The notes under the pieces were generated by a model that did no database searches, was not told the DNA's origin, and saw only the letters and a program-made list of their open reading frames with translations. Shown here in pieces: positions 16,385 through 31,719 of a DNA stretch of 43,161 nt (positions are counted from its first letter, which is position 1; each line of letters starts with the position of its first letter). A program made the translations under genes and the position numbers. Source of the DNA: an uncultured Candidatus Saccharibacteria bacterium. GTDB lineage: Bacteria; Patescibacteriota; Minisyncoccia; Phycocordibacterales; GWA1-40-21. Location: assembly GCA_964613715.1 (NCBI GenBank), contig CAZTJK010000005.1, forward strand, positions 1 to 43,161, in the 5' to 3' direction.

Positions 16385-18577
16385 ATGAAAAAATACATCC
16401 TTGGCGTGATGCTCCTTATCCTCTCCGGCACCGCTGTCGCCCGCGCTGCTGAATATATATTGACGTCATATCCGAAAGCGACCGCAACGACGAGCACCGA
16501 GACTGTATTCGTGCGCCCGCTTTCCGTCGGTACAAGCGGACAGGATGTATTGGCGCTCCGAAAAATCCTCAGCCTCGAACTTTCCATGAATCTCGGCGTC
16601 TCGGCGCTTTTCGATGACGGCTTGAAAAGCGCCGTCGCACGATTCCAGGAAAAATATCCCGTCGATATTCTATTGCCACAGGGAAAGACATCCGGTACCG
16701 GCATGCTCGACGACTGGACGCTCACCAAGCTCAATGCGCTTGCCATAAAATACAATATTCACCTTTCGGATTTCAGCGTAAGCACCGCAGCCGCACCGCG
16801 CATTTATTTCACAGAGGATCTCTCGATCGGATCGGTCGGCAGCGAAGTGGTCTTCCTAAAAAAAGTGCTCAATTCTGATCCGGCAACGGCAATCGTGAAA
16901 ACAGGCTCCGCAGCTGCGTTAGAAAATGTATTCGATGCCGATACTGCAGCCGCTGTCATCAAATTCCAGGAAAAATACGCGGCAGACATCCTCACCCCAG
17001 CAGGACTTGTCCATGGCACTGGCACCGTAGGCGCTGCAACACGCAAAAAGCTCAATGAAATTTTCAATAAGCTCCTGGCAGCCTTCCAAACAACGGCCAC
17101 GAGCACAAGCTTGGCGGCTTCATCATCAACGACCTTCGGCAATTTCACGTTCAATTTCACCCAAGGCAGCGGCGTCAATTTCAATTCGTATCTGTGCGTC
17201 ACCGACACCTGGTCATGTTCTGATTGGAGCCCGTGCGTGGATGGCGTGCAAACACGCACTTGCAGCGTCACCTATGACTGTCCGAATACAGGCGCTCCAG
17301 CACCGACCAAACAATTATGTTATTCGCAATCAAGCGGAAGCAGTGGCGGTAACAGCGGATTTGCCGGCTGCAGCGCCGACAAGCAGACCGCAGTGCAAGC
17401 CGCGATCGATGCATTGAAAAAGAGCTCGACGCAATCTCCAGCAACGAGCGGCTTTACCCAGTCTATTTTCAGCATGCCGGGATCACCGGTAAAATCCTCT
17501 TCGGCGCCAGATCAAATCCAGAATCTCGTTGATACCTGGAAGAGCCAGCAGTCGGATGTGCAATCAGTTATCAATAAGCTCGGCAGTGCAAGCACTGATT
17601 TCGCGACAAAGCAGGCTGCAAGAGATGCAGCAAGTGTACTCACGGGACTTTCAAGCGGCCAGGGCAGGGTTGGCAGTGCACAGAGCATCAGCGAAATGGC
17701 ACAATCAATTACTGATAGCACAAATGCCGTGCAGATCATCGTCACAACCACTACAAGCGATAAACAGGCAGTGGATGATGCTATTGCAAAACTCGGATCA
17801 TTGGCAAGCGACAGCTCGATCAGTGACATCATTGCCCGCCTCAAACAAGTTTCGACGAATATTCAGGGTGAGCTCGACAAGCTGCAGGTAGTGACAGACC
17901 GTTTTCCGAGAGTTGTTTCAGCACAAAATGATGAAAAGACTGATATTGCCGCTGCGCTCGGCCTTACCCAAGGCTTTGCAAGCGGCGCATCTCCGGCAAA
18001 TCTGATCGCTGCACTGAATAAAGTACTGCTTGATCTGCAGATCGAACCGCAGACGATACAAAGCGTGCCGAGTAAGCTCACCGATATCGCCGCAGCGCGG
18101 TCCACACGGCAGCAAAATGTGCAAGCAATCATCACCGCGCTGCAATCGGCATTCGCCGCATGCCAGCCAAAGCCGAATATCGCACCAGGAACGGTCGTCG
18201 CATCGGGCTATTTCGAGGTATGCCTCGCAAATGGAAAAACAAATTGCTCAATCACGTCCGGCAATGCCACCTGCACCGGCCAAAACAGCAATCCAGTAGC
18301 TTGCCCAGCCGGCAGTTCAGTCGTCCCGGGATCGCAGACGACCAATAACAGTGCCAGTCAATGTCCTTCGCTCGGCATTGCTGGTCCGCAGGCGGCAGGA
18401 CATATCAACTTTACCTGCGTACAAGGAGGAAGCGCAGGCACACCAAGCACGGGCGGTTCGTCATCATGCACCGATGTCATCGGCTGCGCCGTGCAAGGCG
18501 TCGGCAATATTGTCGGGGGCGTGGTCAGCGGCGTCGGCAGCATTGTGCATGGCGTGCTCTCTATCTTCGGACTCTAG
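16385..18577 (+). CDS. Large secreted modular protein: 2x peptidoglycan-binding-like domains, TSP1-like Cys motif, helical region, Cys-rich domain, Gly-rich amphipathic tail
   Basis: Signal peptide; repeated AV..FQEKY...GTG.....T..KLN; WSCSDWSPCVDGVQTRTC; start at 16385 supported by TGaTACAAT 6 nt upstream. Confidence 0.8.
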   Translation: MKKYILGVMLLILSGTAVARAAEYILTSYPKATATTSTETVFVRPLSVGTSGQDVLALRKILSLELSMNLGVSALFDDGLKSAVARFQEKYPVDILLPQGKTSGTGMLDDWTLTKLNALAIKYNIHLSDFSVSTAAAPRIYFTEDLSIGSVGSEVVFLKKVLNSDPATAIVKTGSAAALENVFDADTAAAVIKFQEKYAADILTPAGLVHGTGTVGAATRKKLNEIFNKLLAAFQTTATSTSLAASSSTTFGNFTFNFTQGSGVNFNSYLCVTDTWSCSDWSPCVDGVQTRTCSVTYDCPNTGAPAPTKQLCYSQSSGSSGGNSGFAGCSADKQTAVQAAIDALKKSSTQSPATSGFTQSIFSMPGSPVKSSSAPDQIQNLVDTWKSQQSDVQSVINKLGSASTDFATKQAARDAASVLTGLSSGQGRVGSAQSISEMAQSITDSTNAVQIIVTTTTSDKQAVDDAIAKLGSLASDSSISDIIARLKQVSTNIQGELDKLQVVTDRFPRVVSAQNDEKTDIAAALGLTQGFASGASPANLIAALNKVLLDLQIEPQTIQSVPSKLTDIAAARSTRQQNVQAIITALQSAFAACQPKPNIAPGTVVASGYFEVCLANGKTNCSITSGNATCTGQNSNPVACPAGSSVVPGSQTTNNSASQCPSLGIAGPQAAGHINFTCVQGGSAGTPSTGGSSSCTDVIGCAVQGVGNIVGGVVSGVGSIVHGVLSIFGL

Positions 18578-18626
18578 AATCCACAGGCAGCATCGTGCGA
18601 ATATTGTTCCATGCTATAATTCCCGC

Positions 18627-19625
18627 ATGTTGATCGACAGAAAATACCTCCCTTCAAAACGATTCCTTGCTGCCTGCGGCGTCGCAGCAGTCATCATTGC
18701 TATCACGATCTTCCTGAACACCATAAAACCAGCGCCAGCACCGACACTTTCCACGCTTGCTGGAGCAAGCACGACCGCGCCATGGGTCAATACCATAGAC
18801 TCGGACAATGACGGCCTGCCGGACTGGCAGGAAGTGCTCTATGGTACAAACCCTCGCAAGGCAGACACGGATGGCGATGGTACCAATGACGGCGATGAGA
18901 TCGCTCTGAAGCGCGATCCGCTGAAAGCAAATACTGCGCCACAAGGGCAGGAGCCGAATGACAAGATCGCGGCAGACGTTATCGCGCAGAATGATACGAT
19001 TTCTTCCGCCATCAATAATACGCTGAGCGCAACCGAGCAGATGGCACGCAACCTAATGTCGAATATCTTCGCATCCCAGCCGACCGACAGCCAGATGGAT
19101 CAGAACACGGTTGACTCGATCGTCACGAACACGCTCGCGAATGTCCCGCAAAAACAATTCGCGACGAGCACGAAAGTATCTGATCTGAATCTGATCCCGG
19201 TCGCAAGCGACAGTAAATCAGCCGCGCCACAACTTATCGCGTATGCAAAAAGCTTTTATACAGAAACTGAAAAGCTCCGCCAGGTCATTGGCCAAGATGT
19301 CGTCGCTATCAATACTTACAATACCGACAATGACGCCATGAAAGAACAGGATTCTCTCGCTGCAATCACGAAGATATACCAGACAGTCATCAATGACTTC
19401 AAGTCAATGCCGCTGCCGGCCATTGCCGATTCTTATGGTGCTGCATACCATCTCGCGGTTATCAATGATCTCGAGCAATTGATCGAGATCGACAATGATA
19501 TAATGAAATCAACCGCGGATGGTGTGAGTATCTATGGAGACCTTCTCGCATACACGAATGTGATCAATAATCTGACAAAAACTCTCGGCATCCTGGATAA
19601 TGTTCTGCAGATTACCAGACATTGA
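18627..19625 (+). CDS. Membrane-anchored protein with bacterial thrombospondin type-3 (Ca-binding) repeats
   Basis: N-terminal TM; DSDNDGLPDWQE...DTDGDGTNDGDE; TGcTATAAT 6 nt before ATG 18627. Confidence 0.85.
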   Translation: MLIDRKYLPSKRFLAACGVAAVIIAITIFLNTIKPAPAPTLSTLAGASTTAPWVNTIDSDNDGLPDWQEVLYGTNPRKADTDGDGTNDGDEIALKRDPLKANTAPQGQEPNDKIAADVIAQNDTISSAINNTLSATEQMARNLMSNIFASQPTDSQMDQNTVDSIVTNTLANVPQKQFATSTKVSDLNLIPVASDSKSAAPQLIAYAKSFYTETEKLRQVIGQDVVAINTYNTDNDAMKEQDSLAAITKIYQTVINDFKSMPLPAIADSYGAAYHLAVINDLEQLIEIDNDIMKSTADGVSIYGDLLAYTNVINNLTKTLGILDNVLQITRH

Positions 19626-19630
19626 TTACC

Positions 19631-21490
19631 ATGCGTATGAACCAGTTTCTAAAAAAAATAAATATGAAGGCTTGCGCTGCGCTCTCTAGCATCCTGGCTC
19701 TCGTTCTTGCCGGCATCATATCTATGCCGCAAAAGGCGCAAGCAGTGTTTGGCGTCGGCGACGTAACATTCACGACCCTTACCTCGGTCATCGACCCGGC
19801 AACGCTCGCATTTTATACCGCAAGCCAGGCATTCTATACGGCAACTGGCGTTGTGCAGCAAAAGCAACTGACTGCGCCGTCCATTTGGGATATCGCACGC
19901 AAAGAGGGTGTGGAGCCAGCTCTCGCTGCAGCCGCAAAAACGCTTGCGAAAAATCTCATTCTCCAGCTCACTGAAGCGACCGTAAACTGGATCAACTCCG
20001 GCTTCCAAGGCAATCCCGCATTCGTCGCCGATCCCGCAGATTTCCTCGCGCAGACTGCAGACCAAACCGTTGGCCAGTTCCTGATGGAAAGCAGTGACCT
20101 GCGTTTTCTCTGCGCCCCATTTCAGGCCCAGGTAAAAATCGCCCTCGGTCTCGGCTACTCGCAGCCATTCTACAAATCCATCAGCTGTACCCTTACCGGC
20201 GCCATCACCAATGTACAGAACGCCGTGAATAGCTTCACGAGTGCGGGCGGCTGGCAGAATTGGATTCAGATCACGCAGCCGCAGAACAATCCGGTCGGCG
20301 CATTCCTTTTGGCAAAAAGCGAGCTCGATTCACAGATCGAAGGGAGAAAGGCGGCCGCATCGGCGGAGCTCAATTTCGGACAAGGCGCGCTTTCGTATAA
20401 AGATTGCACCGACACCACATATGACACGACCGGCAATGTGGTTTCGACAAAGCGCTATTCCGGCTCCAATTTCTTCAGCGCGACCGCATCCGGCTCGGGC
20501 CGAGGTACAAATCAGACGGTGAAGACTTCCTGCAAAGTCACTACGCCAGGCAAAGTCGTCGTCGATATGCTCGGCTTCAAAGCTACGTCCGATCTGCGCC
20601 AGCTCGAGCTTGAAGCTGCGCTTGGCAATGGTATCGATACCGTGCTTTCATCCCTTGCCAATGCACTGTTGACCAAAGGCCTGCAAGCAATTCAGAACGG
20701 CATTCTCGGCGACAACTCTTCAGCAAACAATCAGTACAATACCCAGCTCGGTACCACTATCGGCCAGATCCCGACCAATTATAATAATCAGCTGGTGAAT
20801 ATCGCGAACGCAACATCATCCCTCTATTTCGGCGATCAGTTCAATGCTTACAACAGCCTCTATGGCAATGGCTTCGGCCAGAGCTTTAGCAATGTGAATA
20901 CCGGCCCGGGCACGCCGTATGATGGGGGAAATATAAATGATCCGTATGCACGCGAGCGCGGGACCGCGATCAATAGCATCAATAATCTCGAAAACTACGA
21001 GGCTACTTATCAAAATGCATATCTGACTGCGACAAATGTGCTTTCAAGCGGCCGCGGGGTATTCGTCGGCGCACGAAATTGCAATGCTGCGTACAGCGAT
21101 CCGAATTCAGCTCTGCGCGCCCTTCAGATTGATGCAAATGTCGTCACCAATATCGACGGCACGCCGAATTCCGATCGCAATGTCGCGCAGATTCCGTGGA
21201 ATCTCACCGATATCGGCAATCTCGTTGCTGTTTCAAACCAGCATGTCGCACTGCTCGATACTGCTCGCACAGCCGTAGCAGCAGCAAGCTCGACGGATGC
21301 GATCAATCTTGCCATGCTGCCGGTCAATTCCACTGCATTCAATACATCGAACCCGACGAATGTCATCACGAATATAAAAACTTGGATGACCGGCATGCAG
21401 AACAATTACAGTACAAGCGCCTGCCCGATCAACCTGACTGCAACATTCCAGATCACTGGCCCTGCAAGCTCCACTCCAACAGGGAATTAG
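19631..21490 (+). CDS. Secreted/membrane hypothetical protein of the Parcubacteria T4SS-like cluster (VNWINSGFQGNPAFV motif)
   Basis: ~620 aa, signal-like N-terminus, CxPF and CTL motifs, Asn/Thr-rich C-half; start uncertain (19631/19637/19664). Confidence 0.75.
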   Translation: MRMNQFLKKINMKACAALSSILALVLAGIISMPQKAQAVFGVGDVTFTTLTSVIDPATLAFYTASQAFYTATGVVQQKQLTAPSIWDIARKEGVEPALAAAAKTLAKNLILQLTEATVNWINSGFQGNPAFVADPADFLAQTADQTVGQFLMESSDLRFLCAPFQAQVKIALGLGYSQPFYKSISCTLTGAITNVQNAVNSFTSAGGWQNWIQITQPQNNPVGAFLLAKSELDSQIEGRKAAASAELNFGQGALSYKDCTDTTYDTTGNVVSTKRYSGSNFFSATASGSGRGTNQTVKTSCKVTTPGKVVVDMLGFKATSDLRQLELEAALGNGIDTVLSSLANALLTKGLQAIQNGILGDNSSANNQYNTQLGTTIGQIPTNYNNQLVNIANATSSLYFGDQFNAYNSLYGNGFGQSFSNVNTGPGTPYDGGNINDPYARERGTAINSINNLENYEATYQNAYLTATNVLSSGRGVFVGARNCNAAYSDPNSALRALQIDANVVTNIDGTPNSDRNVAQIPWNLTDIGNLVAVSNQHVALLDTARTAVAAASSTDAINLAMLPVNSTAFNTSNPTNVITNIKTWMTGMQNNYSTSACPINLTATFQITGPASSTPTGN

Positions 21491-21498
21491 GAAACGGG

Positions 21499-21561
21499 AA
21501 AAAACCGCTTAAAAGCGGTTTTTTAAATAATAAAAAAGCGAGGTTCTCACGAACCTCGCTT
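21499..21561. terminator. Tandem terminator hairpins between convergent genes
   Basis: AAAAAACCGCT-TAAA-AGCGGTTTTTT (21499-21524) and AAGCGAGGTTC-TCAC-GAACCTCGCTT (21536-21561). Confidence 0.85.
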
Positions 21562-21573
21562 GAGAACAGTCGA

Positions 21574-21921
21574 TCAACTGTGGCTATTCTTCTGCTCTTC
21601 CCTTACTTCTTGAAGGAATGCTTTGACACACGGAGACAAATCCCTCTCCGGCACCAAAACGACATAGCTGAAGTAGTAGTTGAAATCGACAGCAGAGTGC
21701 TTAATATTATGCTGCTTTTCCCAGTGATACCGAGTAATCATGGTATCCATGTGATCGCAGGCATATTGCGCCTCTTTCGTCTTCGCTTTCGTATCGCATT
21801 TCTGCGAAACGGCGGGCGAAGACGTGTTTTGAGCTTTGGAACCGTTGCCAGAACCAAAGCCGAAACCCGCGATAGCGATCGCGAGGACCAGCGTTAAGCC
21901 AACCATGACCTTGATCTTCAT
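21574..21921 (-). CDS. Small secreted hypothetical protein (115 aa, three Cys)
   Basis: AAGGAG SD before ATG 21921; signal peptide MKIKVMVGLTLVLAIAIAG; TTGACT-18-TATAAT promoter at ~22000-22029. Confidence 0.7.
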   Translation of the reverse strand: MKIKVMVGLTLVLAIAIAGFGFGSGNGSKAQNTSSPAVSQKCDTKAKTKEAQYACDHMDTMITRYHWEKQHNIKHSAVDFNYYFSYVVLVPERDLSPCVKAFLQEVREEQKNSHS

Positions 21922-22129
21922 GTCTGATCTCCTTGTAAAGAACAATTTTTTGGACTTTCGCCCACGAGTTAATCAGGTTACGACTAACTTCCTTTTTATA
22001 TTATATAATATCAATCAATAACAAGTCAAGTATTAGACGATTTTTCCAATAAAGCCTTGTTTTTAGTCATTTTTATGCACAGGGATATCTTGTGTATATC
22101 TCAATAGGAATGATACAATGTAAAGGTCA

Positions 22130-24313
22130 ATGAAACGATTTTTCACAAAATCCGTTGCGCTTTTTTTGCTTGGCACGATCCTTGGAGGCCTCTTATCCGT
22201 TCATACTGCCTATGCCGGATCGAATCCGAACCTTGTCGGTACTGATTTATCCGGGGGAACAGCATCATCAAGTTACTCGTCAAACACCGGGAGCTTTTCA
22301 TTTGGAAAGGCTGCAGATTTAGGATTCGGAGTTGGTAACTTTATCGTCAATGGCGTTGCGCTTGCCGGAATCGCCACTGTTTTGTATCTAGTCTATGCGC
22401 TTGCAAGCCTCATCCTTGCATTGCTCGGCCTCATGTTTGATGGGGCATTGAATGTTTCATTTTACGGACTGCATAATTTCTTCGACAATCTCGGACCGGT
22501 CGCGACTATCTGGACGCTGATCCGGGATACGGTAAATGTCTGCTTTATATTCATGCTGCTCTATATTGCAATCAGCATGATTCTCGGCAGCATCGGCGTG
22601 AAAGCAAAATCGAATCTTGCAAGCGTACTTATCAGTGCGATTTTCGTTAATTTCAGCATGTTTTTCGCAAAAATCATCATTGATGCAGGAAATATTGTCG
22701 CTATCTCGATTTACAACAGCCTGGGCGGTGGCAATCTTGGCTGGAGCATTGCAGGACAACTTATGGATGGTTTCAATATAGGAGGGGTCATGAGTATTTT
22801 TTCAATATCTGGACAGACAAATATCATGATCAATTTGATCCTGCACCTTGTGCTTGTCGGCATCGCCTGCTATGTGTTCTTCAAAATAGCTGCAATTTTT
22901 ATAGGAAGGACTGTCATGCTTGTCATACACGTGGCCACGTCTCCAGTCGGATTCTTGAGAGTCGGCGCTATACCGTGGCTTGATGAATTGCGAGGCAAGT
23001 GGTGGGGATCATTCGTAAATCAGGTGATGGTGGCTCCACTTTTCATGCTGCTCATGCTCATATTCATGCGGTTCTTGTCTGTCGTTAATGTGGCCATTCA
23101 TCAGTCAACAAGTAGCATGACGTTTGCAGAACAAGCTGCTCCAGGAATTGATTTTGCTGGGTACCTTGCATACATGATGATCGCATTCCTGCTTTGGGAA
23201 GGCATGAAGATCGTGGAGAAAAGCAGCGGCAAGATCGGAGAAATCACCGGCAGTGTGCTGAACACGCTCACCTTTGCAGGTATTGCAGCTGCAACGGGCG
23301 GCGTAGGCATGCTTGGCCGGGCAGGAGGGCTTGTTGCTGGCGGCCTCGAACGGGCCGGCCTGACAAAAACAGCACAAGCAGTCGGTGGTTTTTCAAAAAC
23401 ACTGCGGGAAGTCCCATCCACAGCGAGTAAATTTGTCAAAGGCGAATACAAAGAGAAACCGGGGCTTGTCGGATTCCTCGGCAACAAAGCACGCGATTTC
23501 GGCTTCTCTGAAATCAAGAAAGCTACAGGCGGCGTGGTAAGCCCGAAGGGTATAGAAGATTTCATAAAGAAATCAAAGAGTGGGAACGAGGCAAATGTCA
23601 TGAAGGAGATGGAGAAGGCTGGGCCACAGAAGGATATTGACCGACAGACGCAACTTAAAGATATTGAACAAAATATTACCGAGCAGGCGAAACAGCGCCT
23701 TACGGCTGATTTCGGTTTTAAGGATGATCAGATCAAGGCTGCAAATGCGAGACAAAAAGAGCATGACAAGAATATTGTGGCCCTGAATGAAAGCCAGACG
23801 AAGCTACAGAAGGCCACTACGGACTTGGCATCGTCTATCGGTTCTGAAGAGAGCGTGACCAAAGCGAAAAAAGAATATGAGCAGGCCCAGAAAAATGCCG
23901 ATATTTCGAAAGGTAAGTTGACTACGGATATGCAAGCTATTTTGACGAAACAAGCTGAAGCAAAGGAAGCTGTAGCAAAAGAATTAAAAGTTGACCTACA
24001 AGGACTTAAGAGCGAGCAGGAAAAATTGAAACAAACCATCCGAGAGAAGACGGCAGCAAAAAATGTCTATATTAGCAATGTAGCCTCATACGGCCCAGTT
24101 CGCGGAATGCTAAGTACTGGTTTGACCAGTAAAGATCGCCAAAAACTGGTAGAAAAAATGAGGGCGCAGAAAGGGAAATATAACGCCGATAAAGAAAACG
24201 TGGCGAAGAATATTGTTAAAGCCTTGAAAGATGCCGGCATGGGAGATGCATTGAAAGAAGAAGGTGGTGGAGAGAAAAAGGAGGAGAAAAAAGGAGAGGA
24301 AGGGAAAAAATAG
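22130..24313 (+). CDS. VirB6/TrbL-like polytopic membrane protein with C-terminal coiled coil
   Basis: Multiple TMs, WTLIRDTVN, LISAIFVNFSMFFAKIIID, R.VML......SPVGF, WWGSF..Q...AP; position before prgI and virB4. Confidence 0.75.
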   Translation: MKRFFTKSVALFLLGTILGGLLSVHTAYAGSNPNLVGTDLSGGTASSSYSSNTGSFSFGKAADLGFGVGNFIVNGVALAGIATVLYLVYALASLILALLGLMFDGALNVSFYGLHNFFDNLGPVATIWTLIRDTVNVCFIFMLLYIAISMILGSIGVKAKSNLASVLISAIFVNFSMFFAKIIIDAGNIVAISIYNSLGGGNLGWSIAGQLMDGFNIGGVMSIFSISGQTNIMINLILHLVLVGIACYVFFKIAAIFIGRTVMLVIHVATSPVGFLRVGAIPWLDELRGKWWGSFVNQVMVAPLFMLLMLIFMRFLSVVNVAIHQSTSSMTFAEQAAPGIDFAGYLAYMMIAFLLWEGMKIVEKSSGKIGEITGSVLNTLTFAGIAAATGGVGMLGRAGGLVAGGLERAGLTKTAQAVGGFSKTLREVPSTASKFVKGEYKEKPGLVGFLGNKARDFGFSEIKKATGGVVSPKGIEDFIKKSKSGNEANVMKEMEKAGPQKDIDRQTQLKDIEQNITEQAKQRLTADFGFKDDQIKAANARQKEHDKNIVALNESQTKLQKATTDLASSIGSEESVTKAKKEYEQAQKNADISKGKLTTDMQAILTKQAEAKEAVAKELKVDLQGLKSEQEKLKQTIREKTAAKNVYISNVASYGPVRGMLSTGLTSKDRQKLVEKMRAQKGKYNADKENVAKNIVKALKDAGMGDALKEEGGGEKKEEKKGEEGKK

Positions 24314-24327
24314 ACTAAAAAATACAT

Positions 24328-25077: not shown

Positions 25078-25089
25078 ATTAACTACAGG

Positions 25090-25521
25090 ATGCAATTCCA
25101 AGTACCACAATTCATTGAAGTAGAGGACCGGATTTTCGGGCCGCTGACGCTGCGGCAGTTCATTTACCTTGCCGGCGGGGCAGGGGCATCGGCTGTCGCC
25201 TATATCTACCTTCCTTCAAAGCTTATCGCTATTCCTATCATTCTCATTGTTGTCGCATTCTCGCTTGCGCTCGCATTTTACAAGACGAACGGCAAGGCAT
25301 TCATCGATGTGGTGCAGGCAGCCTTCTACTATGCCGTGGGCGGCAAGCTCTATATCTGGAAGAAAGTAGACAAGAAGCCCGAGCACAGCCTGACTGCCGA
25401 GGTGCAGAAAGCGAAATCCATGGTAAGCGTCCCGAAAATGTCCCAATCGAAGCTGAAAGATCTCACCTGGTCGCTCGACATCAAGGAAAGCCTCAATCCG
25501 GTCACCCGCGAGAACAAGTAG
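25090..25521 (+). CDS. prgI: PrgI family (VirB3-like) protein
   Basis: MQFQVPQFIEVEDRIFGPLTLRQF signature and two TMs. Confidence 0.88.
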   Translation: MQFQVPQFIEVEDRIFGPLTLRQFIYLAGGAGASAVAYIYLPSKLIAIPIILIVVAFSLALAFYKTNGKAFIDVVQAAFYYAVGGKLYIWKKVDKKPEHSLTAEVQKAKSMVSVPKMSQSKLKDLTWSLDIKESLNPVTRENK

Positions 25522-25560
25522 CCTTTCGAATCCGGCTGCTTCTCGTGTATAATAATCGAA

Positions 25561-26190
25561 ATGGCAGTTTCAAAAGCAACACAGGACTTTGTGCCGATCA
25601 AGGAGATCCGCGACGGTATCGTCATGCTCAAAGACGGCTCGATGCGCGCCATTGTCATGGCATCATCGGTGAACTTTGCCTTGAAGTCGCCCGAGGAGCA
25701 GCAGGCGATCATTATGCAGTTTCAAAGCTTTCTGAACGCGCTTGATTTCTCGATACAGGTATCCGTGCAGTCTCGCCAGCTCGACATACGCCCATATATT
25801 TCCATGCTTGAATCAAGATATAAAGACGAGCTCGGCGACCTGATGAAGATACAGATCCGCGAATATATCCAGTTCGTCAAGAATTTCGTCAGTCAGACGA
25901 ATATCATGACGAAGACATTTTTCGTCGTCATCCCGTTCTCGCCGGCAGTCATCAGCACGCAGGATAATCCGCTCGCGACGATCATGCAGAAGCAGAAGGG
26001 AACGACAGTGAAAGCATCGGATCATTTCGAGGAAAACCGCACGCAGCTCGAACAGCGCATCAGTTCTGTTTCCCAGGGCCTCACCCGCTGCGGGATCCGG
26101 AGCGTGCAGCTCGGCACTGAAGAGATTGTCGAGCTCTTCTACAAGACCTTCAACCCAGGCGACATGGAAAAGCCGATCATGCCGGCATAA
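25561..26190 (+). CDS. Conserved T4SS-cluster protein resembling the N-terminal (non-ATPase) part of VirB4/TraC
   Basis: SKATQDFVPIKEIRDG...SSVNFALKS.EEQ.AII...FLNALDF.IQ...SR.LDI; lies between prgI and the ATPase. Confidence 0.75.
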   Translation: MAVSKATQDFVPIKEIRDGIVMLKDGSMRAIVMASSVNFALKSPEEQQAIIMQFQSFLNALDFSIQVSVQSRQLDIRPYISMLESRYKDELGDLMKIQIREYIQFVKNFVSQTNIMTKTFFVVIPFSPAVISTQDNPLATIMQKQKGTTVKASDHFEENRTQLEQRISSVSQGLTRCGIRSVQLGTEEIVELFYKTFNPGDMEKPIMPA

Positions 26191-26201
26191 CAATCACCAT
26201 C

Positions 26202-28022
26202 ATGAGCTTTCTTACCGACATATTCAAAAAGAAAGAAAAGCAGGAGCAGCTGACGTCGTTCCTGCCACAGGAGATCTATGAATCCGGTGTTTTGGAATTG
26301 CAGGATATTATCGCGCCATCCGCGCTCAAAATTTCCCCGAAAGAATTATCTCTTGGCGAAAAAATCGTGCGTACCTTTTTCGTCATCTCATATCCACGCT
26401 TTTTGTCTGAGAGCTGGTTCTCGCCGATCATCAATCTCGACAAGGTATTCAATATTTCTGTATTCATCCATCCGATCGACACAGCAAAGATCCTACGCCA
26501 ATTCCAGAAAAAAGTAGCCGAGGTGCAGAGCCAGATCAATGCTCGCGAGAAAAAGGGCTTGGTGCGCGACCCAATGCTCGATACGGCATATCAGGATCTC
26601 GAGGGGCTGCGCGATAATCTCCAGCAAGCGCAAGAAAAGCTCTTTGATATCGGCCTCTATATCACGCTCTACGGCGACAGCGAGGATGAGCTTGATAAGG
26701 TGGAAGCGGAGGTGAAATCCATTCTCGAATCCCGCCTTATTTATATCAAGCCGGCTCTCTTCCAGCAGGAGCAGGGCTTCAAGAGCGTGCTGCCGATTGC
26801 AACTGATCTCCTCGAGGTACATTCGAAGCTCAATTCATCGCCGCTTTCCTCCATTTTCCCATTCGTATCATTCGACCTGACCTCCGACAAAGGCATTCTC
26901 TACGGCATCAATCGCCACAATGCATCCCTCGTGCTCTTTGACCGCTTCTCGCTTGAAAACTACAATTCGATTACCTTCGCAAAATCCGGTTCGGGCAAAT
27001 CCTACTGCACAAAGCTCGAGATCCTGCGCAGTCTCATGTTTGATACCGATGTCATCGTCATCGACCCGGAAAAGGAATATGAATTCCTCGCTGAAGCAAC
27101 CGGCGGCAAATCATTCGCGATCTCTCTCAATTCCTCAAGCCATATCAACCCGTTCGATTTGCCGGCACCAAAAGAAGATGAGTCATCCGCGGATGTCCTG
27201 CGCAGCAATATCATCAATCTCGTCGGCCTCTTCCGCATCATGCTCGGCGGACTGACTGCGGAGGAAGATGCGATCATCGACCGCGCGATTTCCGAAACGT
27301 ATGCGCTCAAAGACATCACGCCGGATTCTGATTTCAGCAATATCGAGCCGCCGCTTCTTTCCGACTTCGAGCTCGTGCTCTCCGGCATGAAAGGCGCAGA
27401 GGGAATCGTGCAGAAGCTTTCGAAATACACCCGCGGCACCTGGGCCGGGTTCCTGAACAAGCCAACAAATATCAATATCAATTACAAATTCATCGTCTTC
27501 TCCATCCGCGATATGGAAGACGAGCTCAAGCCGGTGGCCATGTACCTGATCACGCACTATATCTGGAATGCCATCCGCCGCGTGACAAAGAAGCGCCTCA
27601 TGGTCATCGACGAGGCATGGTGGATGATGAAATCCGAAGACACGGCGTCCTTCTTGTATTCACTCGCAAAACGCGGTCGCAAATACTATCTCGGCCTTGC
27701 GACCATTACCCAAGACGTCGAAGACTTCCTGAAATCCCCCTACGGCCTGCCGATCGTGACGAACTCGTCCATCCAAATCCTCCTAAAGCAGTCACCGACG
27801 GTCGTCGACAATCTTCAGAAGGTATTCAACCTGACAGACGAGGAGAAATATCTCCTTTTGGAATCGGATGTCGGCGAAGGTATATTCTTTGTCGGTCTCA
27901 AACATGTGGCCATCAAAATCATCGCCTCCTATACCGAGGACCAGATCATCACCTCCGATCCATCACAGCTTTTGAATATTCAGAAAGCGAAGGAGGAGCT
28001 GAAAATGACCCAGGGTCTCTAG
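26202..28022 (+). CDS. virB4: VirB4-like (TraC/DUF87) ATPase
   Basis: Walker A AKSGSGKS, VIVIDPEKEY, INPFD, Walker B MVIDEAW, KRGRKYYLG, TITQD, GEGIF. Confidence 0.9.
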   Translation: MSFLTDIFKKKEKQEQLTSFLPQEIYESGVLELQDIIAPSALKISPKELSLGEKIVRTFFVISYPRFLSESWFSPIINLDKVFNISVFIHPIDTAKILRQFQKKVAEVQSQINAREKKGLVRDPMLDTAYQDLEGLRDNLQQAQEKLFDIGLYITLYGDSEDELDKVEAEVKSILESRLIYIKPALFQQEQGFKSVLPIATDLLEVHSKLNSSPLSSIFPFVSFDLTSDKGILYGINRHNASLVLFDRFSLENYNSITFAKSGSGKSYCTKLEILRSLMFDTDVIVIDPEKEYEFLAEATGGKSFAISLNSSSHINPFDLPAPKEDESSADVLRSNIINLVGLFRIMLGGLTAEEDAIIDRAISETYALKDITPDSDFSNIEPPLLSDFELVLSGMKGAEGIVQKLSKYTRGTWAGFLNKPTNININYKFIVFSIRDMEDELKPVAMYLITHYIWNAIRRVTKKRLMVIDEAWWMMKSEDTASFLYSLAKRGRKYYLGLATITQDVEDFLKSPYGLPIVTNSSIQILLKQSPTVVDNLQKVFNLTDEEKYLLLESDVGEGIFFVGLKHVAIKIIASYTEDQIITSDPSQLLNIQKAKEELKMTQGL

Positions 28023-28083
28023 GCACCTTCTCTGTGGCTCTTTTGTGCACAGCAAGGAGCATTCATGGTATAATAAGCCTGAA

Positions 28084-29103
28084 ATGAGGACTGTTTTTCA
28101 AAGCATGATGGCATTGTTTCTCGTTGTTTTGCTGTTTTCTGCAACCGAAAACGCTGTGCAAGCCCAGACGGCGTCTATTTTCGACAGCGAGCTTATCGGC
28201 CTCTCCATTACCTACAGCCCGACAAGCCCGAAAGCGGGCGATACGGTCGATTTGTCATTGTCGGCATATTCCGGAAATCTGAACACCGCCAAAATCACCT
28301 GGTATGTCGACGGCATCGCGAAAAAGGAGGATGTCGGCGCGAAAACATTCGATATCCAGGCGAAAAATAACGGCGAAGCAACCGAGGTACGCGTGACTGC
28401 TGAAAGCGCCGATGGCATCGTGAGCGATGCATCGACCGAGATCATTCCTGCAGACCTCGACCTGGTCATCGAACCGCAGTCGTATACGCCGCCGTTTTAC
28501 AAAGGCAAAGCGCTTTTCGCCAATCAAGGCACCGTGCGCCTCATCGCTCTGCCAAACGTATTTGTCGCCGGTAAAAAGGCAAGCGCAAGCAGCCTGACCT
28601 TCCGATGGCAAAAAGATGGCACCTTACTTTCCGACAGTTCCGGCCGCGGCGCAAATACGCTGACGGTTACCGGTGTCGTGCCGATCCGCGATATCAATAT
28701 CACCGTGAGCGTCTTCGATGATAGCGGCCGCCAAGTGGCCGGTGCATCAAAAATACTCACCACGAATGATCCGAAAGTACTCTTCTACGAGAACAGCCCG
28801 CTCTACGGAATCCTCTACAACAAAACCGTGAGCGACAATTACTATCTCGGCGGGCGCGAAGAGCTTGATATCGTCGCCAAGCCATATTTCTTCGATTTCG
28901 CAGTGGATGCGGGCAGCGATGCAAGCTACAAATGGTCGGTCAATGGCAATGCGGTACCATCGAGCGGCAAGACAAATGAGCTCTTGCTCAAGCAGACGAG
29001 CCCAAACCTGAAAGGTACGGCGACCGTATCTCTCTCTGCGAGCAACCTTGTGCGAATATTCCAATTCGCCGATAATAGCTTTAATGTCGCCTTTGGCATT
29101 TAA
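28084..29103 (+). CDS. Secreted multi-Ig-like beta-sandwich protein
   Basis: Signal peptide; repeated beta-rich units with W-Y-V-D-G, W-Q-K-D-G and W-S-V-N-G Ig-type motifs; TGgTATAAT promoter upstream. Confidence 0.7.
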   Translation: MRTVFQSMMALFLVVLLFSATENAVQAQTASIFDSELIGLSITYSPTSPKAGDTVDLSLSAYSGNLNTAKITWYVDGIAKKEDVGAKTFDIQAKNNGEATEVRVTAESADGIVSDASTEIIPADLDLVIEPQSYTPPFYKGKALFANQGTVRLIALPNVFVAGKKASASSLTFRWQKDGTLLSDSSGRGANTLTVTGVVPIRDINITVSVFDDSGRQVAGASKILTTNDPKVLFYENSPLYGILYNKTVSDNYYLGGREELDIVAKPYFFDFAVDAGSDASYKWSVNGNAVPSSGKTNELLLKQTSPNLKGTATVSLSASNLVRIFQFADNSFNVAFGI

Positions 29104-29107
29104 TACC

Positions 29108-29983
29108 ATGAAATTCATCACGACCATATTTGCCTTCGCGATCGCCGGCACAGCATATGCGGCAGACACTACCGTCAAGCCATATCTCTTGGAACCGGGC
29201 GCATTCCCTGGCCTCAATACCAGCTCGCCTGATCTCGGATCTTTCCTCGCATCGGTGTTCAATTTCGCCATTGCCGCGGCAGTAGCGCTCACGCTCGTCA
29301 TGATCATCATCGGTGGCATCGAATATATGACCACCGATGCCTGGGACAAGAAAGAGCATGGTAAGGAGCGCATCTGGGGAGCACTCAAAGGCCTCGGGCT
29401 TGCGCTTGTCTCATGGCTCATCCTGTACACCATAAATCCATGCTTGGTCGATTTCTTCGGCGTAAAGGCTGGCGGATGCAAAACGGCAAATACGCTCATC
29501 AACCCGCCAGCGCCAGTCCAGACAGGAACAACAAATACCGGCGCGCCCGGACTTGTTGCCGGCACCGGCCAGGATTTAAGCTGCGGCACGACCTCCTATA
29601 CCTGCCAAGTCTGCCAGGATTGCATCAATCTCGATACGATGGGCGTAGCGCATAAATATCCAGGGCAATCCCTGAATAGCGACCTGGCCAGAAGGCTCGC
29701 GAATGCGCTTGCCGGCGTTCCGGCGCAGATTACCGAAGGCTGGCCACCGACGACGGATCACATATCCACCTGCCACCAGAATGGCAGATGCGCTGATGTA
29801 AACCTCTTCAACCAAAACCAAGATCCAGCGGCAGTAAAGCAGGTATATGACGCGCTCGTCAGCCAGGGGCTCCAGGTCATTTACGAAGCTGATGCAGGCC
29901 ACTGCAGCGTCTATACCGCTGCCGGAGTCAATTGTACTGAAGAATACGATCACACCGCGCCGTCATTTCACGTACATATGTAA
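29108..29983 (+). CDS. VirB2/TrbC-like pilin domain fused to a C-terminal M15-like Zn-peptidase domain
   Basis: LTLVMIIIGGIEYMTT...GKERIWGALKGLGLALVSWLILYTINP (CPR pilin pattern); STCHQNGRCAD (H-x6-D) and terminal FHVH. Confidence 0.72.
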   Translation: MKFITTIFAFAIAGTAYAADTTVKPYLLEPGAFPGLNTSSPDLGSFLASVFNFAIAAAVALTLVMIIIGGIEYMTTDAWDKKEHGKERIWGALKGLGLALVSWLILYTINPCLVDFFGVKAGGCKTANTLINPPAPVQTGTTNTGAPGLVAGTGQDLSCGTTSYTCQVCQDCINLDTMGVAHKYPGQSLNSDLARRLANALAGVPAQITEGWPPTTDHISTCHQNGRCADVNLFNQNQDPAAVKQVYDALVSQGLQVIYEADAGHCSVYTAAGVNCTEEYDHTAPSFHVHM

Positions 29984-29984
29984 C

Positions 29985-31235
29985 ATGTCCAATCGAAATT
30001 CGATCATCGTGCTCGGCCTCATCGTCATTCTCATCATCGGAGGACTCTTTTGGTATTTCAACACTGGCACATCGACGCCGAATACCACGCCGATCACGCA
30101 GACAGACAATACTGCATTGCCCTTCGGCAACACCCCTCAAAACAAGCCCTCGAATACCGGCGGGACTGGAGCGACAAGCACGACGGTCGGCACAAGCACT
30201 CAGGTCATTCCGGCAAAAATAACCGCAAAGCTGTTCCAGGTATATAAAAATCCGACATCAGGTTCCGTCTTTTTTGTGAACAAGAGCGGACAGGAAGCGC
30301 TTCGATTCGTCGATCGTGGCAATGGCAATGTCTATGAATACGTGCCGGCAAGCAATTCTGGCGAATCAGTGCGCATTACGAATACAACCGTGCCGAAGAT
30401 ACAGGAAGCACTCTGGTCTGCGGCAGGCAGTGCGGTACTTTTCCGCTATCTCGACGGTGATACCGACCATATCGCGACATTCGATGCAAAAATCGTCGCG
30501 ACGAGCACAGGCAGCCTTGGCATGATCACCGGAACATTCCTCGCATCGGATATCCTTCAGGCTGCTGCCAATCCGAAAGGCGACAAGCTGTTTTCATTTT
30601 TTGAAAAGAAAGGTGGAGCAGGATCATACGGCGTTCTTTCGAATTTCGATGGCAGCGGCAAGAAGCAAGTGTTCGATTCGCCGGTCGCATTATGGAACGT
30701 GTCCTGGCCGAAGGAAAATATCCTTGCCTTCACAACGAAGCCAACCTATAAAGATGATGGATTTCTGTTCTTTTTCAATCCGACGACAAGCTCATTCGAT
30801 AAAATACTCGGCGGCCTACCAGGGCTTTCAGCGCTTGCGAATCAGGCTACCGACCGTATTGCCTATTCGATGACAAATAATGGCTCGTTCTATCTCGATA
30901 TATATGATGTCAAAAACAAAGCGACAAAGGATATTCGCATATCGACGCTTGCCGACAAATGCGCCTGGGATCCGACCGACAGCACCGTGCTCTATTGTGC
31001 GATTCCGCAAACGATACCAAACGCAAATTATCCGGACAGCTGGTATGACGGCACCGTATCTTTCTCGGACAGCCTGTGGCGAATAAATACCGATGCCGAT
31101 GAGGCTGAGCGCGTCTACCAGACGAGTGAAAGTGACGGCCGTATCGATGCAATGAACCTCGCCATCAGCCCGTCGGGGCAGTACGTGAGCTTCATAAACA
31201 AGAACGATCTGAGTTTCTGGCTCCTCTCACTATAA
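29985..31235 (+). CDS. Membrane-anchored beta-propeller (TolB/WD40-like) protein
   Basis: N-terminal TM, Thr-rich linker, repeated blades (ALWSAAG, NPKGDK, WPKEN, CAWDP, ISPSGQYVSFIN). Confidence 0.75.
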   Translation: MSNRNSIIVLGLIVILIIGGLFWYFNTGTSTPNTTPITQTDNTALPFGNTPQNKPSNTGGTGATSTTVGTSTQVIPAKITAKLFQVYKNPTSGSVFFVNKSGQEALRFVDRGNGNVYEYVPASNSGESVRITNTTVPKIQEALWSAAGSAVLFRYLDGDTDHIATFDAKIVATSTGSLGMITGTFLASDILQAAANPKGDKLFSFFEKKGGAGSYGVLSNFDGSGKKQVFDSPVALWNVSWPKENILAFTTKPTYKDDGFLFFFNPTTSSFDKILGGLPGLSALANQATDRIAYSMTNNGSFYLDIYDVKNKATKDIRISTLADKCAWDPTDSTVLYCAIPQTIPNANYPDSWYDGTVSFSDSLWRINTDADEAERVYQTSESDGRIDAMNLAISPSGQYVSFINKNDLSFWLLSL

Positions 31236-31258
31236 AACCCGCCGAGAGCGGGTTTTTT
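31234..31258. terminator. Bidirectional terminator ending the T4SS-like operon and the jag operon
   Basis: AAAACCCGC-CGAGA-GCGGGTTTT. Confidence 0.8.
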
Positions 31259-31719
31259 CATGGCTTGGCAACGTATCGAATGACGATTCTTCTTTCTTTT
31301 CCTTCACCGATTGATTCCGTCTTTATCGACGACTCGCCGGAAAGCATCCCGTGCACGAGCAGCCGCTCGTATGAGGACATGGGTTCCATTTCGACATCCG
31401 ATTTCGTGTCGCGTGCCCGACCGGCCAAGAGTGCAGCCTTGATTTTCAGCTTTTCCGTCCTTCCTGAACGGTAATCATTCACGTCGATAGAGAAGAGTGG
31501 CGCTTCGAGAGCATCTTTCTGCGCGATGCGCTTCACGAGATGCGACAAAGCTTCGAATGTTTCTCCATGATCCCCGATGAGCAGGGGCTGATCCTTTGTT
31601 TTGATCACAAACACCGTGTTCTGCGTGATGGGATCAAGCGTCAATTCGACTGCGTCAAAAGATGCCCCGAGAGCGCGAAGCATGCTTTCTATGAGAGCTT
31701 TGATAGCATGTGCATCCAT
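31258..31719 (-). CDS. jag: Jag/KhpB (KH + R3H) RNA-binding protein, short form
   Basis: LLIGDHGETFEALSHL, IDVNDYR, MSSYERLLVH, TESIGEG..RRIVI; follows yidC. Confidence 0.88.
   Translation of the reverse strand: MDAHAIKALIESMLRALGASFDAVELTLDPITQNTVFVIKTKDQPLLIGDHGETFEALSHLVKRIAQKDALEAPLFSIDVNDYRSGRTEKLKIKAALLAGRARDTKSDVEMEPMSSYERLLVHGMLSGESSIKTESIGEGKERRIVIRYVAKP

Follow-up and report, generated by a model that had tools for sequence, protein, structure and literature searches.

A type IV secretion system locus beside dnaA in Paceibacteria, with a predicted Hedgehog-like peptidase head on its pilin

Do conjugation-type genes that lie directly beside dnaA form a mobile element, or do they belong to a machine that the chromosome has made its own? 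The question is raised by a stretch of 43,161 nucleotides (the window) from a rock-metagenome MAG. The locus reaches from the ATG of its first exported protein (16385) to the stop codon of its final gene (31235), flanked by rsmA on one side and by jag-yidC-rnpA-rpmH-dnaA-dnaN on the other (Table 1). It encodes a VirB6-like protein, PrgI/VirB3, a VirB4 split into a TrsD-like N-terminal part and the ATPase, and a VirB2-like pilin. Of its seven other proteins, five are exported or membrane-anchored: one that binds peptidoglycan, one with TSP3 repeats, a helical one of 619 aa, an Ig-like one, and one of 416 aa. The locus is almost certainly the Paceibacteria version of the Patescibacteria clade's type IV secretion system (T4SS). 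An earlier note on this DNA had named the VirB6-like, PrgI, VirB4, and pilin genes as well as both boundaries, all of which were borne out, the VirB6-like gene by weaker signals and the others by Pfam or NCBIfam or, for rpmH, by inspection of the L34 sequence; it had missed the TrsD-like gene and a minus-strand gene of 115 aa.

Table 1. Genes and other features of the locus and its flanks, with positions in the window.
Feature	Position	Strand	Characteristics
rsmA/ksgA, 16S rRNA dimethyltransferase	15579-16361	+	Pfam RrnaAD 1.9e-55; upstream boundary, outside the machine
Variable exported protein, 730 aa	16385-18577	+	Signal peptide, peptidoglycan-binding repeats, 16 Cys, C-terminal hydrophobic anchor
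Variable membrane-anchored protein, TSP3 repeats (bacterial thrombospondin type 3)	18627-19625	+	TSP3_bac 1.3e-8
Conserved exported protein, 619 aa	19631-21490	+	Mostly helical; invariant Cys and Trp residues
Lineage-specific insertion, exported ORF, 115 aa	21574-21921	-	Own sigma-70 promoter, AAGGAG SD site, terminators
VirB6-like, extended polytopic membrane protein	22130-24313	+	Signal peptide; 5 or more TM segments; C-terminal half a K/E-rich coiled coil
Conserved cytoplasmic protein, 249 aa	24328-25077	+	Invariant C-terminal DPYRE motif, no TM segment
PrgI/VirB3-like small membrane protein	25090-25521	+	Pfam PF12666, E = 1e-10
TrsD-like protein (VirB4 N-terminal domain as separate gene)	25561-26190	+	NCBIfam TrsD/TraD 4.4e-8
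VirB4 ATPase, MPF_FATA / CD1110 type	26202-28022	+	NCBIfam CD1110-family VirB4, 5.8e-110
Conserved exported Ig-like protein	28084-29103	+	Signal peptide; Ig_3 5e-6
Pilin-head fusion	29108-29983	+	Signal peptide, two-TM VirB2-like pilin module (aa 46-111), extracytoplasmic Cys-rich head
Conserved membrane-anchored protein, 416 aa	29985-31235	+	N-terminal TM segment; in 51/51 relatives
jag/khpB	31258-31719	-	Pfam R3H/KH; downstream boundary
yidC	31722-32468	-	Pfam 60KD_IMP; in 51/51 relatives
rnpA	32498-32848	-	Pfam Ribonuclease_P
rpmH	32912-33046	-	L34 sequence inspected; in 48/51 relatives
dnaA	33216-34559	+	Bac_DnaA 1e-61; in 51/51 relatives
Putative oriC, AT-rich spacer	34561-34625		Three DnaA-box-like sites
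dnaN	34749-35849	+	Beyond dnaA and AT-rich spacer

The VirB4 ATPase scored 368.7 bits against an NCBIfam cut-off of 325 and displays intact Walker A (AKSGSGKS, aa 260) and Walker B (LMVIDE, aa 466) motifs; over 100 clusters match it at 83-95% identity, those with a taxon name all being Patescibacteria/Paceibacterota MAGs. The TrsD-like protein also matches positions 2-136 of the CD1110 VirB4 model of NCBIfam, and the split is common to all relatives examined, with ORFs of 202-272 aa at 82 of 82 loci. VirB4, TrsD, and PrgI are all of the monoderm MPF_FATA type, in agreement with the earlier description of the system as conjugation-derived. The VirB6 assignment is the weakest call. The window protein revealed no Pfam match, but 6 of 36 orthologues match TrbL/VirB6 (best 1.6e-4), hhalign relates it to PrgH of pCF10 (E = 3.5e-4, probability 37%), and R388 TrwI/VirB6 is the top Foldseek PDB match of its low-confidence model (probability 0.97, E = 0.21). 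These three weak but concordant signals suggest a putative VirB6, whose gene lies upstream of PrgI and VirB4, with the gene of the 249-aa protein between it and PrgI. The 249-aa protein is fast-evolving, was detected in 30 of 52 relatives, and is without match in Pfam, NCBIfam, or PDB.

The locus comprises a conserved core of nine genes and two variable ones. Of the variable proteins, the 730-aa protein, which matches PG_binding_1 at 3.2e-5, was detected in only 15 of 52 relatives with 29% identity to the nearest one, and the TSP3 protein in 16 of 52; the true start of the latter, at 18627, lies inside a longer ORF (18351-19625). The 619-aa protein is found in 49 of 52 relatives, and some of its homologues carry added F5/8 type C (discoidin) domains; its AF2 model (mean pLDDT 64) is confident for a bundle of helices (aa 440-610), and no fold match to the model was present in PDB and BFVD. 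The Ig-like protein (51/51 relatives) shows a profile match to the Ig domains of phage T4 Hoc (E = 0.007). The 416-aa protein, which has no family match, is a possible beta-propeller, judged from a faint match to the TolB propeller (E = 0.11). Neither a VirB8-like protein nor a classical VirB1 was recognised in the locus, and the "complete accessory set" of the earlier note corresponds to no defined state.

One detail of the locus is apparently new, namely a predicted Hedgehog-like cell-wall peptidase domain on the pilin. PF18895, the pilin module, is matched by the window protein at the Pfam cut-off and is found in 52 of 58 orthologues (best E = 2e-11), and the predicted topology puts the C-terminal zinc peptidase head outside the cell. 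The head, at about aa 165-291 (E210, H218, H223, D230, E260, and H288), belongs to the Hedgehog/DD-peptidase (LAS zinc peptidase) family. Searched alone against PDB, its best 22 matches are all Hedgehog N-domains (E = 0.002); as a profile of 42 sequences, its best 24 matches are again all Hedgehog (E = 3.5e-7). Glutamate, histidine, H-x6-D, and a further glutamate are invariant across the head family, and 138 of its 150 representatives also carry the pilin module. With the Hedgehog/DD-peptidase family (MEROPS M15A; bacHh, Roelink 2018, PMC6027127), the head shares the TEGW-like motif, the H-x6-D zinc ligands, and the catalytic glutamate in a YE context, all of them known from the Sonic hedgehog N-domain; in bacHh proteins, the domain likewise sits C-terminally in a larger protein anchored in the membrane. 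In contrast to these, whose identity to Hedgehog exceeds 50%, the pilin head is about 30% identical or less, a Cys-rich insertion precedes its third histidine, which is found at the extreme C-terminus (FHV), and its predicted enzymatic activity would be borne by a T4SS pilin module, a fusion not shared by Hedgehog or bacHh proteins. The heads are swappable, with at least 23 unrelated C-terminal types among 46 comparable orthologues, one of them carrying an NlpC/P60 head in place of the Hedgehog-like one. A pilin with a globular head of 180 aa may not polymerise as VirB2 does, and could be a plain membrane anchor for the enzyme.

The kind of locus described here, which the ultrasmall Paceibacteria keep beside dnaA, is already published, and nearly all of it is reported in PMC12102498 (Quinonero-Coronel et al. 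2025). As in the Paceibacteria arrangement given there, VirB4 is nested in MPF_FATA, TrsD is separate, PrgI/VirB3, VirB6, and a VirB2-like pilin are found near virB4, relaxase and T4CP are absent nearby, and the neighbours dnaA, dnaN, rnpA, ksgA, and rpmH are all reproduced in the window; the locus is one more member of that system, with no essential difference. In the sections of the paper that were searched, there is no discussion of heads fused to the pilin, of the contrast in rate with DnaA, of promoter style, or of the conserved unnamed components, and neither there nor in Wang et al. 2023 did we find the rate contrast, the swappable heads, the Hedgehog/DD-peptidase head, or the lineage-only SD-bearing gene. 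Function has been tested in Southlakia epibionticum ML1, where the homologous cluster SEML1_0006-0019 was essential for epibiotic growth in Tn-seq (Wang et al. 2023, PMC10633639) and comEC was dispensable (PMC10633639, PMC12857230). The two clusters have in common the core run of VirB6-like, PrgI, TrsD-like, and VirB4 genes, behind which come exported proteins and wall hydrolases; in both, pilins are present and neither a relaxase nor a coupling protein is recognisable, and the Southlakia cluster also lies beside dnaA, judged from its locus tags. Southlakia belongs to a different class (Saccharimonadia), however. Where the window has a single pilin-head fusion, its cluster has an array of six small pilins; its lysozyme-type hydrolases have genes of their own, and an NTF2-like (VirB8-like) gene is present as well as two that are VirB6-like. 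Among the conjugation systems, pCF10 Prg/Pcf has a similar order, PrgH(VirB6)-PrgI(VirB3)-PrgJ(VirB4) and then a wall hydrolase, and the TrsD model that matches the window was built from Trs systems (pGO1/pSK41), while the window VirB4 is in the CD1110 family. Those systems reside on plasmids or ICEs and carry a VirD4-type coupling protein, relaxase, oriT, and LPXTG adhesins without a pilin; the window locus, at a fixed chromosomal site, has a VirB2-like pilin and no DNA-processing module.

Across 80 species-level Paceibacteria genomes, drawn from the Taylor-, Zambryski-, Kaiser-, Wolfe-, and Campbellbacteria lineages, the genes of the locus stand in one and the same order, and synteny is likewise seen in the nearest relative, L081; dnaA lies downstream in 51 of 51 and rsmA upstream in 48 of 52 relatives. 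An order kept so widely indicates that the locus is fixed and vertically inherited; the patchiness in relatives that had been set beforehand as the point against such a view is not seen, and the wording "fixed next to oriC" stands. In relatives, the end of VirB4 is a median of 5.5 kb from dnaA, though a gene-dosage reading of this proximity is doubtful for slow growers. The GC content falls to 0.387 in the 34-35 kb region, and of 14 DnaA boxes in the window (7.05 expected), three lie within 65 bp of the spacer. Median identities to the window are 79% for VirB4 (over the 80 species), 61% for TrsD, 58% for DnaA, 56% for PrgI (present in 52/52 relatives), 40% for the pilin, 32% for G462, 31% each for C622 and Ig352, and 27% for the VirB6-like protein, which is nevertheless kept in 51 of 52 relatives; VirB4 is more conserved than DnaA, while exposed parts range from 27 to 40%, and this ranking is unchanged in the comparison with L081.

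Mobility is further addressed by gene content and composition. Scans of the major ORFs with Pfam or NCBIfam and a repeat search revealed no MOB relaxase, VirD4 (T4CP), transposase, integrase, or att-like repeat in the 43-kb window, the statement on VirD4 applying to the window only; the earlier list of absences holds, except that an Xer-type tyrosine recombinase (2526-3503), the sole recombinase, lies 13 kb from the locus with housekeeping genes between. GC is 0.504 within the locus and 0.493 elsewhere, and its RSCU follows that of housekeeping genes (r = 0.95). Leaderless promoters of the host style, as proposed before, are supported by a -10 box 3-13 nt before the start in 8 of 32 genes (1.3% by chance, p = 8e-9) and an SD-like site in only one of the 32; they are predicted, without SD, at five locus genes from -10 boxes adjoining the start codons, among them the genes of the 730-aa protein (6 nt before ATG), the TSP3 protein (TGcTATAAT, 6 nt), the TrsD-like protein (7 nt), and the Ig-like protein (TGgTATAAT, 9 nt), and the style recurs at orthologues in relatives. 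"Domesticated" is thus an apt term. A present or recent ICE, with relaxase, coupling protein, and integrase outside the window and a T4SS still moving DNA between cells, could invoke the homology of the components to conjugation machinery and the VirD4-like genes that, according to PMC12102498, lie elsewhere in most Patescibacteria genomes, with relaxases in a few. The same paper reports only 109 relaxases in 3,035 genomes, rarely near virB4, and a VirB4 phylogeny that tracks class taxonomy, and with the constant position, the lack of att-like repeats, and the host-like composition, codon use, and promoters also against it, an ICE is hardly credible; synteny has already largely refuted it.

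Under the reading we prefer, an ancestor would have acquired a monoderm (MPF_FATA-type) mating-pair-formation apparatus, whose DNA-processing partners were lost in cis and which settled in the chromosome as a vertically inherited operon set some 2-17 kb from dnaA/oriC, now serving as a cell-envelope machine for an epibiotic lifestyle and not as a mobile element. The VirB4/TrsD motor, docked via PrgI to the VirB6-like channel, would build a surface structure from pilin subunits, and the peptidase head and the peptidoglycan-binding protein would cut or remodel peptide bonds of the cell wall at the point of contact, be it in the wall of the host or of the cell itself, opening a path between epibiont and host for the translocation of proteins or other macromolecules. 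The exposed parts may evolve fast and exchange their heads because they need to match different hosts. Such a contact or host-exploitation machine is suggested by analogy to the Tn-seq results from Saccharimonadia, a different class (PMC10633639), and no substrate, effector, or coupling protein was identified in the locus. Identity, loss of DNA-processing partners, and envelope function, taken as one statement, are reasonably probable, the functional reading being much less certain than the identity. The T4SS could instead take up host DNA, nucleotides, or other macromolecules, like archaeal Ced DNA import, and feed an organism deficient in nucleotide synthesis, which Patescibacteria lack (PMC10633639). 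Consistent with this are the absence of a coupling protein in cis, a minority of Patescibacteria VirB4 proteins that cluster with archaeal ones in PMC12102498, and a weak CedB match of VirB4 (about 70 aa in the P-loop region, E = 1.9e-8); that match, however, covers the generic ATPase core only and, at 33 bits, is far under the cut-off of 700, this VirB4 belongs to the bacterial CD1110 type, and neither a CedA-like partner nor a nucleic-acid-binding component was found in the locus, so import appears improbable. Some chance, if a small one, is left to a self-directed role, in which the motor only builds a pilus or adhesive layer, the predicted peptidase head would remodel only the wall of the cell that bears it, and no substrate enters a host. 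The pilin, the peptidoglycan-binding protein, the head, and the adhesin-type Ig-like and TSP3 proteins would suit it, as would the lack of an effector or coupling protein and the setting amid envelope-biogenesis genes (yidC, jag, and PBP1A are adjacent), but the retained VirB6-like channel protein argues against it, and the extreme diversity of the pilin heads fits adaptation to external targets better than own-wall housekeeping.

The minus-strand gene of 115 aa stands apart from the rest of the locus. It revealed neither a Pfam or NCBIfam family match nor a homologue in the related loci compared, where L081 has just a 98-nt gap at this site, and judged from these sequences it is an insertion confined to the lineage of the window. 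Its promoter (TTGACT-18-TATAAT, 22029-22000) is accompanied by terminator hairpins, and it is the only SD-bearing gene among the 32 examined.

In the window, whose GC content is about 50%, the locus beside dnaA consists of twelve genes, eleven on the plus strand and a small one on the minus strand. It is bounded by rsmA (ksgA) on one side and by the block jag-yidC-rnpA-rpmH on the other, beyond which come dnaA, dnaN and, between these two, an AT-rich spacer. That this is a real T4SS locus, as the earlier note had recognised, was borne out by family matches for VirB4, PrgI and the pilin, with a probable VirB6-like protein in addition. The VirB4 ATPase, with intact Walker A and B motifs and a match to the TraG P-loop domain as well, revealed the CD1110-family VirB4 as its best model (368.7 bits against a cut-off of 325). 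Its closest homologues are 83-95% identical, and every one of these carrying a taxon name is a Patescibacteria/Paceibacterota MAG protein; on the model match and the homologue names, the protein would be classified into the Patescibacteria-clade type nested within MPF_FATA. Directly upstream lies a TrsD-like gene, a component that the list in the earlier note lacked. Because the TrsD-like ORF is separate in all 82 related loci (202-272 aa), the split between TrsD and VirB4 is natural, and in the survey of Quinonero-Coronel et al. 2025 (PMC12102498) it is the commonest T4SS feature. PrgI and TrsD are encoded next to virB4 and are present in 52/52 relatives, and the pilin family PF18895 was detected in the window pilin (2.5e-6) as well as in 52 of 58 pilin orthologues.

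The protein encoded upstream of PrgI and VirB4, with a 249-aa gene in between, displayed no direct Pfam family match. Six of its 36 orthologues match Pfam TrbL/VirB6, the best only weakly (1.6e-4), and the orthologue profile aligned weakly with PrgH of pCF10 (hhalign E = 3.5e-4, probability 37%). A Foldseek search of 350,542 PDB chains returned R388 TrwI/VirB6 chains as top matches (probability 0.97, E = 0.21), though the AF2 model behind it, built on seven sequences, is poor (pLDDT 46.6) and the match counts as a concordant hint only. As these three weak signals agree, the protein is probably, not provenly, VirB6-like, and the gene order is close to PrgH-PrgI-PrgJ of pCF10. By topology prediction, the eleven plus-strand genes specify seven exported or membrane proteins, three cytoplasmic ones (the 249-aa protein, TrsD and VirB4) and PrgI, which shows a single TM-like segment.

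Features of the window, their presence in related loci with full flanks, and their median identity to the window over the same genome pairs, the loci having been picked by VirB4 similarity
Feature	Coordinates	Strand	Match or character	Presence	Median identity
Xer-type tyrosine recombinase	2526-3503	-			
MFS transporter ORF	7465-8013	+	182 aa, about half of family model covered		
Wall hydrolase	11176-12264	-	LysM + Peptidase_M23		
347-aa ORF	12501-13544	-			
UvrD					56%
rsmA/ksgA, upstream boundary	15579-16361			48/52	50%
Peptidoglycan-binding protein	16385-18577	+	Cys-rich, C-terminal anchor	15/52	
TSP3-repeat protein	18627 (real start)-19625	+		16/52	
619-aa protein (C622)	19631-21490	+	helical	49/52	31-32%
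Inserted ORF	21574-21921	-	115 aa, exported		
VirB6-like protein (probable)	22130-24313	+	727 aa; signal peptide, at least 5 TM segments, K/E-rich coiled-coil tail	51/52	27%
249-aa protein (D249)	24328-25077	+			
PrgI/VirB3	25090-25521	+	PF12666, 1e-10		56%
TrsD-like protein	25561-26190	+	209 aa; TrsD family 4.4e-8; VirB4 model N-terminal 136 positions		61%
VirB4 ATPase	26202-28022	+			79%
Ig-like protein (Ig352)	28084 (real start)	+		51/51	31-32%
T4SS pilin	29108-29983	+		46/51	40% (pilin module)
416-aa protein (G462)	29985-31235	+	membrane-anchored	51/51	31-32%
jag-yidC-rnpA-rpmH, downstream boundary	31258-33046	-		yidC 51/51; rpmH 48/51	
dnaA/putative oriC	33216-34748			dnaA 51/51	DnaA 58%
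dnaN				50/51	DnaN 49%
YebC/TACO1-like ORF	40718-41248	-	short, 176 aa		
DUF559 ORF	41290-41643	-	small, restriction-endonuclease-like		

The survey of 3,035 Patescibacteria genomes (PMC12102498) describes a monophyletic VirB4 clade inside MPF_FATA, with TrsD, PrgI, VirB6 and VirB2-like pilins near virB4, relaxases almost absent, and DnaA, DnaN, RnpA, KsgA and RpmH as neighbours in Paceibacteria. The window locus resembles this Paceibacteria system both in its parts (TrsD and PrgI, a VirB2-like pilin, no relaxase or coupling protein among the major ORFs of the 43 kb) and in its position near dnaA, dnaN, rnpA, ksgA and rpmH. The homologous genes SEML1_0006-0019 of Southlakia epibionticum, the one species in which such a requirement is shown, were reported by Wang et al. 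2023 (PMC10633639) to be essential for growth on the host (Tn-seq); they also lie beside dnaA and show the same core order. In that species comEC is dispensable (reviewed in PMC12857230). The locus is thus a published system correctly recognised, another member rather than a discovery. With each species represented by a single genome, the scan yielded 80 loci, and the possibility that the locus is patchy in close relatives was set aside by the same order in every one of these species-level loci. From the upstream to the dnaA side the order reads uvrD-rsmA-[619 aa-VirB6-like-(249 aa)-PrgI-TrsD-VirB4-Ig-like-pilin-416 aa]-(jag)-yidC-(rnpA)-rpmH-dnaA-dnaN-PBP1A, and from uvrD to PBP1A it is the same in every related locus mapped with window proteins, including the nearest relative (167-kb contig, VirB4 94-95% identical). 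The earlier note's "complete accessory set" did not hold, as the first two genes, given their low presence in related loci, are variable additions outside any complete set.

An active ICE or a plasmid of the MPF_FATA type would be expected to carry its own DNA-processing genes, as pCF10 does with a relaxase, oriT and a coupling protein within 12 kb of prgJ (VirB4); in contrast, Pfam/NCBIfam scans of the major ORFs over the 43 kb revealed no relaxase, oriT or VirD4/TcpA. Neither a transposase nor a phage-type integrase was detected among the scanned window ORFs, and no direct repeats flank the locus, so that the earlier note's claim on these absences stands. The sole recombinase, of the tyrosine type, lies 13 kb away with the housekeeping genes rpsO, pnp, comM and uvrD in between; matching the XerD, XerC and XerA models end to end (about 1e-70), it looks like an enzyme that resolves chromosome dimers and not like the integrase of an element. 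The composition is host-like, with a GC of 0.504 within and 0.493 outside the locus, a GC3 of 0.587 against 0.601, and an RSCU correlation with housekeeping genes of r = 0.95. Together with a site fixed in 80 species, these features led us to reject the ICE/plasmid identity, and an active ICE is considered extremely improbable.

The promoters agree with a host style as well. A TA[TCG]A[AT]T box ends 6-10 nt 5' of the ATG at 16385, 18627, 22130, 25561 and 28084, and likewise at dksA, tyrS and one more host gene; in total, a -10 box so placed was counted in 8 of the 32 genes, where chance would give 1.3% (p = 8e-9). An SD-like site was found at 1 of 32 window genes. In relatives, such sites occur at 0-5% of orthologue starts, fewer than the roughly 7% that chance predicts, and the orthologues share the -10-box-near-ATG style. 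The near absence of SD sites and the closeness of the box to the start codon suggest that most mRNAs of this lineage are leaderless or have very short leaders, and the boxes predict five transcription units in the locus; at sequence level, the host-style leaderless promoters of the earlier note were thus upheld. The window sequence was detected in rock-metagenome runs, and no RNA runs containing it were found.

The single gene with a canonical SD site (AAGGAG) among the 32 examined is the inserted 115-aa ORF between the genes of the 619-aa and VirB6-like proteins, which has a near-consensus -35/-10 promoter with leader (22029-22000) and terminators at 21499-21561. It is absent from all related loci, the nearest relative showing a 98-nt gap at this site, and neither a family match nor a homologue was found; it may be a recent acquisition.

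Components of the locus differ strongly in their conservation. VirB4 exceeds DnaA in median identity, a difference inflated somewhat, though not by 20 points, by the choice of loci, and the order of identities is the same in the nearest relative (VirB4 94%, DnaA 85%, VirB6-like 27%). The motor is under a stronger constraint than the initiator of replication, and divergence is fast in the exposed parts. Among the accessory proteins, the AF2 model of the 619-aa protein reached a mean pLDDT of 64 with a confident C-terminal helical bundle; it gave no meaningful Foldseek match in PDB or BFVD, nor did a profile search of PDB or hhalign against the pCF10 hydrolase PrgK. Profiles searched against PDB gave a faint match of the Ig-like protein to the Hoc Ig (E = 0.007), a faint match of the 416-aa protein to TolB (E = 0.11) and no match for the 249-aa protein; a Pfam scan of the individual orthologues of the 416-aa protein brought no family match.

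The pilin is composed of a signal peptide, a two-TM pilin module (aa 46-111) and the head, a Cys-rich domain some 130 aa long that is predicted to lie outside the cell. Searched alone against PDB, the head found Hedgehog N-terminal domains in all of its 22 best matches (E = 0.002); a five-sequence profile was too shallow (E = 0.17), and a profile of 42 sequences matched Sonic hedgehog at E = 3.5e-7, all 24 best matches being Hedgehog proteins. Invariant in the 42 family members are E210, H218, H223-x6-D230 and E260, while H288 lies in a conserved C-terminal FHV motif after a nearly invariant Phe and is present in the family consensus. The same residue features are described for Shh and for bacterial Hh-like peptidoglycan peptidases (Roelink 2018, PMC6027127). 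Judged by homology, zinc ligands and catalytic Glu, the head is a predicted Hedgehog/DD-peptidase domain (LAS, M15A). An exhaustive search yielded 313 clusters of this head type, and 138 of the top 150 head-family representatives also carry the pilin module; the head was not matched in a plasmid collection, searched as a test of a link to rhizobial bacHh proteins. Among 52 orthologues with a delimitable pilin module, the window's own protein included, 46 have a head of at least 60 aa. BLAST separates these heads into at least 23 unlinked groups; one orthologue carries an NlpC/P60 head and another an Ig head. The heads appear exchangeable, and the nearest relative's head differs in type from that of the window. 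For this head of the nearest relative, no assignment as a LAS peptidase is claimed: the motif is similar by eye, but PDB and Pfam gave no match and hhalign finds no link to the window head. The available sections of PMC12102498, a term search included, hold no mention of pilin-head fusions.

From this parts list, its predicted topology, the fixed position and the lack of DNA-processing genes in cis in the window, a mechanism may be outlined in which PrgI would dock VirB4/TrsD to the VirB6-like channel and this motor would drive the assembly of pilin subunits. Their peptidase heads, together with the peptidoglycan-binding protein, would cut peptide bonds of the wall at the contact site, and something, most likely protein, would cross the interface between epibiont and host. 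As the pilin-borne peptidase domain is predicted outside the cell, it suggests that cleavage of the wall where the two cells touch belongs to the mechanism. A machine serving purely the assembly of the cell's own surface we regard as unlikely. An import machine appears more doubtful still; identity with the archaeal Ced DNA import system was rejected, CedB reaching 33 bits, where the cut-off is 700, in the P-loop core only and a search for CedA-like proteins finding none. One may speculate, though we would not put much weight on it, that the pilin subunit is a conserved membrane/pilus module with exchangeable extracellular heads, that the T4SS is a wall-cutting contact organelle and that the heads set the host range. 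If true, head swapping would decide which host cell-wall chemistry is breachable, comparable to the receptor-binding or lysin modules of phages.

The T4SS is nearly universal in Patescibacteria, a group that accounts for a large part of the diversity of bacteria and whose members are attached to other microbes. To its description, our analysis adds an independent confirmation of the fixed arrangement in 80 species, numbers for an extremely conserved cytoplasmic motor, which evolves more slowly than DnaA, beside fast-evolving exposed parts, and, with the pilin-borne Hedgehog/DD-peptidase domain predicted outside the cell, a testable biochemical handle.

Regarding the origin, the AT-rich dnaA-dnaN spacer contains three DnaA-box-like sites clustered in 65 bp. 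The cumulative GC skew has its minimum near 31 kb, just where the genes change strand; it is therefore uninformative and was not used as evidence. Rfam and tRNA scans of the window gave no match. The plus-strand T4SS genes, like uvrD and rsmA before them (13633-31235), all point towards dnaA and the putative oriC, an orientation kept in all related loci; if replication starts there, they would face the fork head-on. A gene for a wall hydrolase (LysM + Peptidase_M23) precedes the locus by about 4 kb, and the same gene lies upstream of uvrD in at least ten related loci. Since M23/LysM proteins are counted among the VirB1-like candidates near virB4 in Paceibacteria in PMC12102498, this hydrolase may work with the T4SS. 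Divergent to uvrD lies a 347-aa ORF without a Pfam/NCBIfam match or a homologue in related loci. A small DUF559 ORF is located towards the other end of the window, and the MFS and YebC/TACO1-like ORFs may be gene remnants.
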